NCBI RefSeq assembly: GCF_003334785.1
Contig: NZ_QOWV01000002.1
DNA: 64,000 nt
Reading direction: 5' to 3' (one strand)
Source: Escherichia coli
Lineage (GTDB): Bacteria > Pseudomonadota > Gammaproteobacteria > Enterobacterales > Enterobacteriaceae
Shown: positions 51,568-61,310 of the stretch, piece after piece
How the letters are laid out: each line of letters starts with the position of its first letter
How positions within the stretch are numbered: position 1 is the first letter of the stretch
Program-made: the position numbers and the translations under genes
Notes under the pieces: model-generated
The model's input: only the letters and a program-made list of their open reading frames with translations
The model's database searches: none
What the model was told of the DNA's origin: nothing

Positions 51568-51831
51568 TGAAAATCTGACCGAATGTAACGGTTGATAAGA
51601 AAATTATAACGGCAGTGAAGATTCGTGGCGAAAGTAATTTGCTGCGAATATTCCTGCCGTTGTTTTATATAAACAATCAGAATAACAACGAGTTAGCAAT
51701 AGGATTTTAGTCAAAGATTTCCAGGATTTTCCTTGTTTCCAGAGCGGATTGGTAAGACAATTAGCGTTTGAATTTTTCGGGTTTAGCGCGAGTGGGTAAC
51801 GCTCGTCACATCGTAGACATGCATGCAGTGC

Positions 51832-51870
51832 TCTGGTAGCTGTAAAGCCAGGGGCGGTAGCGTGCTGAAA
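51832..51870 (+). promoter_or_regulatory. JUMPstart element with ops (GGCGGTAGCGTG at 51853-51864) upstream of the O-antigen operon
   Basis: aagccaggggcggtagcgtg about 60 bp upstream of wzx. Confidence 0.8.
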
Positions 51871-51923
51871 TTATAAAGTCATTCTTATAGAACATCGCAT
51901 TTCAATAATATAATTACACCTAA

Positions 51924-53180
51924 ATGAATAGGATACAACGTGTGCATAATTATTTAAGGCTTAAAGATAAAATAAAAAACGTATTTTTAGGGTTATATAT
52001 ATTGCAGTTATTTAATTATATCGCGCCATTGGTAATTATCCCTATCCTGATAAAATATATTGGGTTGGGGGAATATGGGGAATTAGTCTATATTACATCT
52101 ATTTATCAAATAGTGGCTTTGTTTATTGATTTTGGCTTTACTTACACAGGACCTGTGGTTGCTGCGAGACATAAATGTGAGATCCAAAATTTACAGCGCT
52201 ATTACTCAATAGTTGTTCTTTTAAAATCATTGCTTTTTATAATTGCATTAACATGTGTATTTTTATTGTGCAGATTAAATATAGTCCACTTGTCATTTTT
52301 GGGGTTTTTGTCAATTTTTCTATGCTCTATTGGTAATATAGTATCGCCCAATTGGTTTTTGCAGGGGATTGGTGATTTTAAAAAACTTTCATACTCTCAA
52401 GTAATAGTGAGAATAACATTGTTTATCATGCTTCTTGTTTATGTCTGTAGTGGCGGAGATAATGTTTTTATCTTAAGTTTTTTACAAAATGCAACATTAC
52501 TCATATGCTGTATATACTTATGGCCAAATATTCATATTAGCCATGTTGTTCATCTTAAACCTAATGAATGCATTGTGGAATTTAAGAAGGCAGGAAATGT
52601 TTTTATTGGCGTAATAGGTACGATTGGTTACAATGGTCTAATTCCTGTGTTAATTGGAAACCTTTGCGGTAATACGAGTCTTGGTGTTTTTTCAATCGTT
52701 CAAAAAATGACAACAGCATGTCAAAGCCTAATTAATCCAATATCACAGTATATGTTATCACAAGTTTCAGAAATTAAACCTCAAGATGAACTGTTTTATT
52801 ATAGAATTAAAAAAAGTTTTTTTGTGCATTTAACAATTAGCATAATTGCATGTTTATGTTATATGGGGTTAGGGCAATATGTGGCGACTTTTATAGGTAA
52901 AGTTGACGTTTCATTTGTTATTATTTTATATGCGTCAGTAATTACAATTTTTTCATCTTTAAATAATGTCCTTGGTATACAGTTTCTTATACCGACAGAT
53001 AATGTAAAAATACTGCGAAGTATAAATGTTATAGCGGGAATTATTGTTGTTAGTTTGTCCTGGCTGTTAATATCACGCTTTGACATTCTGGGGGGGGTTT
53101 TATTAAATCTAATTGGTGAGTTTCTTGTATTCAGTATGCTAGCTTTTATTGCCCATCGTAAGTGGGGAGCGAGAGTATAA
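51924..53180 (+). CDS. wzx: O-antigen flippase Wzx
   Basis: 418 aa multi-TM protein in a low-GC region; Wzx-like N-terminus and W-F-x-Q-G motif (NWFLQG). Confidence 0.75.
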   Translation: MNRIQRVHNYLRLKDKIKNVFLGLYILQLFNYIAPLVIIPILIKYIGLGEYGELVYITSIYQIVALFIDFGFTYTGPVVAARHKCEIQNLQRYYSIVVLLKSLLFIIALTCVFLLCRLNIVHLSFLGFLSIFLCSIGNIVSPNWFLQGIGDFKKLSYSQVIVRITLFIMLLVYVCSGGDNVFILSFLQNATLLICCIYLWPNIHISHVVHLKPNECIVEFKKAGNVFIGVIGTIGYNGLIPVLIGNLCGNTSLGVFSIVQKMTTACQSLINPISQYMLSQVSEIKPQDELFYYRIKKSFFVHLTISIIACLCYMGLGQYVATFIGKVDVSFVIILYASVITIFSSLNNVLGIQFLIPTDNVKILRSINVIAGIIVVSLSWLLISRFDILGGVLLNLIGEFLVFSMLAFIAHRKWGARV

Positions 53181-58573: not shown

Positions 58574-58593
58574 ATAAAAAAGGTTTCAGTTTT

Positions 58594-59799
58594 ATGAATC
58601 AATCAGAGCAGAGAAAAAAAATACTGGTTCTTACACCTCGCTTTCCCTACCCTGTCATTGGAGGGGATAGATTAAGAGTCTATATGTTATGTAAAGAACT
58701 TTCCAAAAAATATGATCTTATTCTTCTGAGCTTATGTGATCAACCACTAGAACTTGAAATAAATATAAATGACTCGGTCTTCAAAGAAATTCATCGTGTC
58801 TATCTACCAAAATATAAATCATATTATAATGTATTTAAAGCTTTGGTTACGCAAAAACCGTTGCAAATTGCTTATTATCAATCGGACACATTTAAGAATA
58901 AATACAATAAATTAATTAAACAATGCGATGCAGTATTTTGTCATCTAATAAGAGTTGCTGATTATGTTAAGGATACAGACAAGTTCAAAATTCTTGATAT
59001 GACAGATGCAATATCTTTGAATTACAGTCGCGTTAAAAAATTAGCAAGTAAAAAAAGTTTGCGTGCAATTATTTATTCTCTGGAACAAAAAAGATTAGAA
59101 TCATATGAGCGTTCTGTGGCGAATCTTTTTGATTTGACCACTTTTATTTCATCCGTAGACCGTGACTATCTCTACCCTAATCCGGGCAGTAATATCCATA
59201 TAGTCAATAATGGGGTTGATACATCAGCCTTGAGATATATAAAAAGAGAAATAAAAATCGATAAGCCGGTGGAACTTATATTTATCGGAAATATGTATTC
59301 TTTACAAAATATGGATGCTGCAAAAAATTTTGCTAAGAATATTTTACCTTGCTTGCATGATGAGTTTAATATTATTTTTAAAGTGATTGGTAAGATCTCA
59401 GAAACTAATAAAAATATATTAAATTCATTTAAAAATACAATTGCTTTAGGTACTGTTGATGATATCAATTCTTCCGCTTCTACAGGGCATATAGGTATAT
59501 GTCCTGTTCGTCTTGGAGCAGGCGTACAAAATAAAATTCTTGAATACATGGCTTTAGGTTTACCATGTATTACATCTAGCATTGGTTATGAAGGTATTAA
59601 TGCAAAATCTGGTAGCGAAATTTTTGTTGCAGATACAGTAGAGCAATATAAAAACGTACTAAGAGAAATAATTTACGATTATAATCGTTATACTGAAGTG
59701 GCTGAAAATGCCCGTAGTTTTGTAGAAAATAATTTTTCTTGGGAATCAAAAGTTGCCAATTTAATGAATATATTAGATGAGAAATTATATGAACAATAA
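58594..59799 (+). CDS. Glycosyltransferase group 1 (GT4), possible mannosyltransferase
   Basis: ORF track start 58537 trimmed to the ATG at 58594 ([20 protein letters not shown]) with an upstream AAAAAGG SD; GT-B fold features. Confidence 0.7.
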
Positions 59800-61228
59800 T
59801 AAAATTATTACACCTATCATTATGGCAGGTGGTTCAGGCAGTCGGTTGTGGCCACTATCAAGAATTCTCTATCCGAAACAATTTCTTAGCCTAAACGGTA
59901 GTCATACCATGCTTCAAACAACGGCTAATCGTCTGGATGGTTTGGATTGTACCAACCCTTATGTCATTTGTAATGAACAACACCGCTTTATAGTTGCTGA
60001 ACAGCTTAGAAAAATCGATAGATTGACTTCAAAGAATATCATCCTTGAGCCTGTTGGGCGTAACACTGCCCCTGCAATTGCATTAGCGGCGTTGCTGATG
60101 TCTAAGTCTGATAAAAGTGCAGATGATCTTATGCTCGTACTGGCTGCAGATCACGTTATATTAGATGAAGAAAAATTTTGTAACGCTGTTAGATCGGCAA
60201 TTCCATACGCTGCTGATGGGAAATTGGTAACATTTGGTATAATTCCAGACAAAGCAGAAACTGGTTATGGTTATATACATCGAGGACAATATATTAATCA
60301 GGAAGATTCGGATGCATTTATAGTGTCATCATTTGTTGAAAAGCCAAATCATGAGACAGCCACTAAATATCTTGCTTCCGGTGAGTATTATTGGAATAGC
60401 GGTATGTTTTTGTTTAGTGCAAATCGTTATATAGAGGAACTTAAACAATTTCGGCCTGATATTTTATCCGCTTGTGAAAAAGCAATTGCTTCAGCGAACT
60501 TTGACCTTGATTTTGTGCGTTTAGATGAAAGTTCTTTCTCTAAGTGTCCTGAAGAGTCAATTGATTACGCTGTAATGGAAAAAACAAAAGACGCAATTGT
60601 TATTCCAATGGATGCTGGCTGGAGTGATGTCGGTTCATGGTCTTCTCTTTGGGAAATTAATGATAAAGACTCAGACGGCAACGTAATAGTTGGGGATATT
60701 TTCTCTCATGAAACAAAGAATTCTTTCATATATGCCGAATCGGGAATTGTTGCTACAGTGGGAGTGGAAAATTTAGTTGTTGTCCAAACAAAGGATGCCG
60801 TTCTTGTCTCAGAGAGAAATAAAGTTCAGGATGTAAAGAAAATAGTCGAACAAATTAAAAATTCAGGTCGTAGCGAGCATTATGTTCATCGCGAAGTATA
60901 TCGTCCTTGGGGTAAATATGATTCCATTGACACAGGGGAGCGTTATCAGGTCAAACGTATAACAGTAAATCCTGGTGAAGGACTTTCTTTACAAATGCAC
61001 CATCATAGGGCAGAACATTGGATCATAGTTTCTGGAACTGCAAAGGTGACTATAGGTTCTGAAACTAAGATTCTTAGCGAAAATGAATCTGTTTACATAC
61101 CTCTTGGTGTAATACACTGCTTGGAAAATCCAGGGAAAATTCCTCTTGATTTAATTGAAGTTCGTTCTGGATCTTATTTAGAAGAAGACGATGTTATCCG
61201 TTTTCAGGACCGATATGGTCGCAGCTAA
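59789..61228 (+). CDS. manC: Mannose-1-phosphate guanylyltransferase (O-antigen copy, low GC)
   Basis: Protein colinear with cpsB ([14 protein letters not shown]..) but with divergent low-GC DNA; start could be 59777 or 59789. Confidence 0.85.
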
Positions 61229-61310
61229 ATTTTTGATAATGTAACGTTAGTAGAAGAACGCTAATATTTTTAGTTAATCTGTAATAAGTATTATTTGTTT
61301 AAGGTATATC

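Follow-up and report, generated by a model that had tools for sequence, protein, structure and literature searches.

The AT-rich block between galF and gnd of an Escherichia coli contig is very probably the serogroup O6 O-antigen operon in its E. coli W-type allele

The O-antigen biosynthesis locus of Escherichia coli was analysed in a stretch of 64,000 nucleotides (contig NZ_QOWV01000002.1 of assembly GCF_003334785.1; hereafter the window), in which the block at positions 51568-61310 follows galF and leads towards gnd. An earlier note on this DNA had described the block as an O-antigen cluster of the Wzx/Wzy type and of unassigned serogroup. Nine consecutive open reading frames (ORFs) were arranged head to tail on the + strand from 51924 to 61228, without sizeable ORF-free gaps. 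They encoded the flippase Wzx, the polymerase Wzy, glycosyltransferases (GTs), a sugar epimerase and ManC, and the gene manB closed the cluster (Table 1). The protein families, together with a match to Rfam RF01707, bore out the assignment to the Wzx/Wzy type, with all genes on the + strand behind a JUMPstart, and no wzm/wzt genes of an ABC transporter were present among the annotated cluster genes. In the comparison with reference clusters, neither stops nor frameshifts were found in any of the ten genes.

Table 1. Features of the O-antigen locus and its flanks in window coordinates, with functions as predicted from sequence
Feature	Coordinates	Strand	Size (aa, amino acids; bp, base pairs)	Support and remarks
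galF	50674-51567	+		conserved upstream flank; TIGR01105 685 bits vs cutoff 659; RefSeq annotation on identical DNA
JUMPstart	51826-51864	+	39 bp	ops octamer GGCGGTAG at 51853-51860; probable RfaH-dependent antitermination signal
wzx, O6 O-unit flippase	51924-53180	+	418 aa	PF01943 2.7e-19
wzy, O6 O-antigen polymerase, intact	53180-54523	+	447 aa	PF14296 7e-31; TIGR04370 54.9 bits vs cutoff 40
GT2, inverting, GT-A fold	54529-55389	+	286 aa	PF00535 8.6e-26
GT4-type, retaining, GT-B fold	55386-56417	+	343 aa	PF00534 5.5e-17; PF13439 8.9e-7
divergent GT-B	56404-57549	+	381 aa	PF13692 1.7e-6 and PF13439 7.6e-4 (weak); RefSeq 'glycosyltransferase'
gne, GalE-family UDP-hexose 4-epimerase	57566-58573	+	335 aa	TIGR01179 431 bits vs cutoff 262
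GT-B	58594-59799	+	401 aa	PF13692 3.5e-14, chiefly C-terminal domain; TIGR03087-like 204 bits, below cutoff 317
manC, cpsB-type mannose-1-phosphate guanylyltransferase/phosphomannose isomerase	59789-61228	+	479 aa	NF012004 865 bits vs cutoff 859; TIGR01479 790 bits
manB, phosphomannomutase, last cluster gene	61311-62681	+	456 aa	NF011943 1050 bits vs cutoff 801
gnd, 5' part, runs off window	62845-64000	+		conserved downstream flank; RefSeq gndA

The block between galF and gnd was AT-rich, as the note had stated, with a guanine-plus-cytosine (GC) content of 0.325 against 0.529 for window positions 1-50000. Windowed GC values were 0.28-0.35 across the block and 0.49-0.57 in the flanks, and a similar picture was given by the single genes (wzx 0.312, wzy 0.310, GT2 0.310, the three GT-B genes 0.339, 0.282 and 0.305, gne 0.345 and manC 0.383, against 0.506 for galF and 0.503 for gnd), so that the compositional difference from the flanking DNA was real. 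The note had also listed manB in the cluster, which was correct, but the gene lay neither within the end that had been set at 61310 nor among the AT-rich genes, as its GC content was 0.554. The compositional edge of the imported AT-rich DNA was located at the manC-manB spacer (61229-61310), not at gnd.

The region 51568-61310 was compared by megablast with 5426 complete E. coli genomes. All of its 9743 bases were found at 100% identity in VE-F10, LR-64-2, PEC399 and others, at 99.9% identity in E. coli W and its derivatives KO11FL and LY180, and at 98.5% identity in ATCC 25922, CFT073 'clone D' and others, with 100% coverage in each case. The wzx and wzy products in all of these matches were annotated in RefSeq as 'O6 family O-antigen flippase' and 'O6 family O-antigen polymerase', and the order and lengths of the genes in the annotations of VE-F10, ATCC 25922, Nissle 1917 and W were collinear with the ORFs of the window. 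The O6-specific part (51924-59780, 7857 bases) was matched in 154 of the 5426 genomes, every time with 100% coverage, and these included CFT073, 536, Nissle 1917, ATCC 25922 and strains named O6:H16. Over the 7.9-kb block from wzx to the last transferase, no megablast similarity, even segmental, was detected in any non-O6 genome among the 5426. These matches indicate that the region 51568-61310 is almost certainly the O-antigen biosynthesis operon of E. coli serogroup O6, in the allele of E. coli W and related strains.

The proteins that define the serogroup were consistent with this assignment. Wzx was identical to WP_001353872.1 and Wzy to WP_021544702.1, which carry the 'O6 family' flippase and polymerase names in RefSeq, respectively. 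Compared with ATCC 25922, 407 of the 418 residues of Wzx were identical (97.4%, 11 differences), as were 442 of the 447 residues of Wzy (98.9%), and compared with W each of the two proteins had a single difference. Wzx and Wzy thus matched those of typed O6 strains, which is the basis of in-silico serotyping. NCBIfam contained no O6-specific hidden Markov model (HMM): Wzx was placed in no family there and Wzy in the generic TIGR04370 only. The basis of the 'O6 family' label is therefore the name that RefSeq gives to the identical proteins, together with the DNA identity between the window and typed strains. As for these strains, E. coli W is described as having an O antigen of the O6 type together with an R1 core (PMC3032704), the repeat mass measured for the O6 strain ATCC 25922 corresponds to the glucose (Glc) form (PMC11148006), CFT073 is bound by O6-specific antibody (bioRxiv 10.1101/2024.06.07.597965), and Nissle 1917 likewise reacts as O6, with semi-rough O6 lipopolysaccharide (LPS) (PMC6895014).

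The cluster of the window was closest to those of VE-F10 and W. VE-F10, the nearest complete genome examined, differed at 20 positions in 64 kb, of which one (62066, in manB) lay within 48068-64000 and 19 lay within 1-50000. E. coli W (ATCC 9637; NC_017664 / NC_017635) had the same locus with the same gene order and lengths, and up to manC only three amino acid differences separated its proteins from those of the window, namely L99F in Wzx, S128P in Wzy and P22R in ManC. The flanks of W differed, with 172 differences over 48068-64000 that were found mostly in wcaL/wcaM and gnd, which places the window in another strain background. The O6 strains of the uropathogenic (UPEC), enterotoxigenic (ETEC) and reference types (CFT073, 536, Nissle 1917, ATCC 25922, O6:H16) had identical gene content and order without indels at 98.3-98.5% nucleotide identity, whereas in their flanking genes galF, manB and gnd they were 3-4.5% divergent from the window. 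The window and ATCC 25922 were separated by 147 nucleotide substitutions and 50 amino acid differences over 51568-61310.

The 154 O6 clusters fell into two allele classes with the same gene content, one of 22 clusters with at least 99% identity to the window and the other of 132 clusters with about 98.3% identity. The 22 W-type clusters came from W and its derivatives and from isolates of humans, pig, cattle, beef, a cloacal swab and hospital wastewater, and the 132 clusters of the other class came from UPEC, ETEC, Nissle and ATCC 25922 strains. Between the window and ATCC 25922, the genes wzx to gne diverged evenly by about 1.5-2%, and the last transferase gene and manC by about 0.7%; synonymous changes predominated, and no transferase held a hot spot. 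The serology and chemistry of O6 on record, like the O6 structure and wzy genetics, were established on UPEC/ETEC/reference-class strains and cover only the class of ATCC 25922, CFT073 and Nissle (PMC11148006, PMC6895014).

The published O6 repeat unit is ->4)-α-D-GalNAc-(1->3)-[β-D-Glc-(1->2)]-β-D-Man-(1->4)-β-D-Man-(1->3)-α-D-GlcNAc-(1-> (GalNAc, N-acetylgalactosamine; Man, mannose; GlcNAc, N-acetylglucosamine), and in a second form on record the branch is β-D-GlcNAc (PMC11148006, Table 1, which cites Jansson 1984 and Jann 1994). The gene set of the window fitted this unit, with manB and manC for mannose, gne for GalNAc and four transferases for the four non-initiating sugars. The precursor set of mannose plus GalNAc and the approximately four transferase steps after the WecA-initiated sugar, both of which had been proposed earlier, were consequently in agreement with the published structure, and the serogroup that was matched does contain Man and GalNAc.

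The four transferases were assigned to the four linkages with less confidence. GT2 resembled the β-1,3-glucosyltransferase PglI at the family level (NF050050, 64 bits, far below the cutoff of 500; PDB 9jma, 2.7e-9), and it probably adds the β-1,2-linked Glc or GlcNAc branch or, alternatively, one of the β-Man residues. The 343-residue enzyme showed weak, family-level matches to retaining enzymes, including the GalNAc transferases PglA and PglJ, and is predicted to be the α-1,3-GalNAc transferase, which would make the single α bond. The 381-residue enzyme belonged to no NCBIfam family and had no sequence relative in the PDB at E<=1, and for the 401-residue enzyme no significant PDB relative was found. 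These two proteins are the likely β-mannosyltransferases. The earlier label of three GT4 enzymes was firm for the 343-residue protein but was matched weakly by the other two.

The genes for the sugar precursors were better defined. Gne aligned with E. coli GalE structures over its full length (1e-107), and its Cys298 occupied the position of the gatekeeper Tyr299 in GalE (1udc) and of the Cys in the Y299C mutant (1lrk). A small gatekeeper residue reportedly admits N-acetylated substrates, which Tyr299 is said to exclude. Gne is therefore expected to make uridine diphosphate (UDP)-GalNAc from UDP-GlcNAc. The O6 cluster is known to carry gne, and the presence of gne in the cluster, together with the absence of gnu in front of galF, is the reason that O6 was counted among the units whose first sugar is GlcNAc (PMC7685785). 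In the window, likewise, no gnu was found upstream of galF, where the wcaM-galF gap was only 174 bp. The manC gene had only 64% nucleotide identity to the colanic-acid gene cpsB of the window. A manC/manB pair is present in 56 of 196 E. coli O-antigen clusters (PMC4732683), and the features shared with generic Wzx/Wzy clusters that have manCB were the galF-gnd site, the JUMPstart, the low GC content and the gnd-proximal position of manCB (PMC4732683, PMC7685785).

Several observations set limits to the reading of the locus as O6 in the W-type allele with the published unit. The unit has three β bonds but the cluster encodes a single GT2, which requires at least two GT-B enzymes to be inverting; a strict retaining GT4 label would not fit these. 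The eight O6-specific proteins of the window differed from those of ATCC 25922 at 50 amino acids, 27 of them in the four transferases. In addition, codon 128 of wzy was Ser in the window and VE-F10 but Pro in W and ATCC 25922. Nothing that was found contradicts the O6 identification, and the earlier guess of an O6-like structure proved right, with complete DNA identity to genomes that have 'O6 family' wzx/wzy. By contrast, there is next to no chance that the locus belongs to a new serogroup that only resembles O6, since DNA identical to it is already public in complete genomes and the same ten-gene order is shared, at 98.5% DNA identity, with O6 strains that were typed serologically and chemically. 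The locus is thus already known and correctly annotated, it is not a new serogroup, and the earlier statement that the serogroup was unassigned and that wzx and wzy may be novel was refuted by the identical public DNA and the RefSeq names. A different question is whether the O antigen is made. All ten genes are intact, so smooth O6 LPS is expected, and the strain probably makes it. The cluster would be phenotypically silent if the strain were rough or semi-rough owing to a missense change of the Wzy P128S type or to defects of wecA, waaL, wzz or rfaH outside the window. A single nucleotide change in the O6 wzy is given as the cause of the semi-rough phenotype of Nissle 1917 (PMC6895014, citing Grozdanov 2002), whose wzy is interrupted by a stop at codon 329 and is a pseudogene in RefSeq. 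In addition, the Ser128 of the window departs from the Pro of W and ATCC 25922, and other genes that are required lie outside the window. However, the wzy of the window has no internal stop, and the absence of stops and frameshifts extends to all ten genes. The same Wzy (WP_021544702.1), moreover, is found with identical cluster DNA in independent isolates from human, pig and wastewater, which argues for an allele that is maintained rather than decaying. A rough or semi-rough strain is therefore very unlikely.

The remaining alternative concerns the fine structure within O6. We assumed that the branch (Glc or GlcNAc) is the same as in ATCC 25922. The W-type allele might instead mark a distinct O6 subtype, which would have the GlcNAc branch of Jann et al. 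in place of the Glc branch (vaccine type O6A), through changes in the branching transferase. Two O6 unit structures are on record, the Glc-branched Hex3HexNAc2 of 892.32 dalton (Da) and the GlcNAc-branched Hex2HexNAc3 of 933.34 Da (PMC11148006, Table 1), a genomic study of 2025 could locate no account of how O6A differs genetically from other O6 subtypes (PMC12274568), and our literature searches found no published genetic basis of the O6 subtypes. The swap of a transferase gene was ruled out as the cause of the Glc/GlcNAc subtypes, as all 154 clusters cover 100% of the O6-specific region, and the two allele classes have the same gene content. ATCC 25922, with its measured Glc form, falls in the other class, and GT2 differed between the classes at six residues, including the adjacent changes S168P, I169F and I170V (SII vs PFV), which arose from three first-codon-position changes. 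Against this, the divergence was uniform, mostly synonymous and without a hot spot, and it looks like ordinary allelic drift; the determinant may equally be encoded elsewhere in the genome, or none of these genomes may represent the minority form. We consider it unlikely that the W-type allele is a distinct, GlcNAc-branched subtype. The broader proposal, that the second O6 chemotype (GlcNAc- rather than Glc-branched, 'O6A') has its so far undescribed genetic basis in this allele, is held to be just as unlikely.

With the locus read as the O6 operon, its leader and pathway can be outlined. The galF-wzx spacer of 356 bp holds the JUMPstart, which was recognised by Rfam RF01707 with 60 bits (gathering score 35). 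The exact 39-mer occurred once against 0.00 expected, 60 nucleotides upstream of wzx in the untranslated leader. A JUMPstart/ops leader confers RfaH-dependent read-through of an operon. RfaH dependence of the O6 operon would be implied by this leader (see also PMC4732683). A scan for consensus promoters and terminators gave results no better than shuffled sequences (51 promoter-like and 4 terminator-like sites, where 50.3 and 8.3 were expected). The ops octamer GGCGGTAG was present in 8 copies in the window, where shuffled sequences predicted 1.23, at 2282, 7582, 8092, 15889, 26768, 27355, 40153 and 51853. Only the copies at 27355 and 51853 lay inside JUMPstarts, and the others were within coding regions (mdtD, mdtB, yegD, yegH, wcaI), where they may reflect codon or composition bias. 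The second JUMPstart (27328-27366; Rfam, 57.3 bits) was located upstream of wza of the colanic-acid operon.

In the proposed pathway, transcription would begin upstream of the JUMPstart/ops element, and RfaH recruited at ops would carry RNA polymerase through the AT-rich operon of about 11 kb. ManB and ManC would provide guanosine diphosphate (GDP)-mannose for the two Man residues, Gne with its Cys gatekeeper would convert UDP-GlcNAc to UDP-GalNAc, and UDP-Glc and UDP-GlcNAc would come from housekeeping metabolism. The unit would be started by WecA, which is encoded elsewhere, with the transfer of GlcNAc-1-phosphate to undecaprenyl phosphate, and the four transferases of the cluster would then add the β-1,3-Man, the β-1,4-Man, the α-1,3-GalNAc and the β-1,2-linked Glc (or GlcNAc) branch. 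The pentasaccharide would be flipped across the inner membrane by Wzx and polymerised by Wzy via the α-GlcNAc-(1->4)-GalNAc bond. Wzz would set the chain length and WaaL would ligate the chain to the lipid A-core, both being encoded outside the window.

The manB gene was cpsG-like, with 96.4% nucleotide identity to the colanic-acid cpsG (42022-43392), 19 kb upstream. Between the two O6 allele classes its divergence was 3.4%, compared with 0.7% for manC. The GC content, the likeness to cpsG and the class divergence indicate that the history of manB differs from that of the rest of the cluster. A tract of 685 bp was perfectly identical between the two genes (cpsG 42412-43096 and manB 61701-62385). 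In the same cpsG/manB tract of VE-F10 there were 16 differences; at 15 of them the cpsG of the window had the manB base, and at one the manB had the cpsG base. The cpsG version of the window was present in no complete E. coli genome, the best match being 99.2%. The tract reflects either a recent gene conversion between cpsG and manB or a merging of both copies in the assembly. These paralogues are known to recombine, and such an event caused the deletion in O14 (PMC7685785). An algC RNA motif (41968-42017; Rfam, 78.2 bits) was located directly upstream of cpsG, and the same Rfam scan reported none before the paralogous manB.

Other features were noted in the window and in the matched genomes. 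An naRNA4, of a small RNA family derived from repetitive extragenic palindromic (REP) elements, was found at 46407-46477 on the - strand between wzxC and wcaK at the Rfam gathering level. The mdtA-yegL intergenic region (11052-11440) corresponded to two type I toxin genes of the Ibs family, of 19-20 codons, in the collinear annotation of VE-F10, a known feature. Two records named 'DH5alpha' (NZ_CP026085.1 and NZ_CM135829.1) contained an O6 cluster that was intact and 99.9% identical to the W cluster. A K-12 derivative should carry a disrupted O16 (rfb-50) locus, and these two records are probably mislabelled strains of the W lineage.

O6 is among the commonest and best-studied O groups of E. 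coli, being represented by UPEC, ETEC, Nissle 1917, ATCC 25922 and strain W. The practical value of the finding lies in typing, in that the window very probably derives from an O6 strain with the W-type allele. The two allele classes bear on how the O6A and non-A subtypes used in estimates of vaccine coverage differ genetically, which is still undescribed. If the W-type allele did underlie the second chemotype, it would provide a sequence marker for a subtype distinction that is relevant to O-antigen vaccines against extraintestinal pathogenic E. coli (ExPEC).

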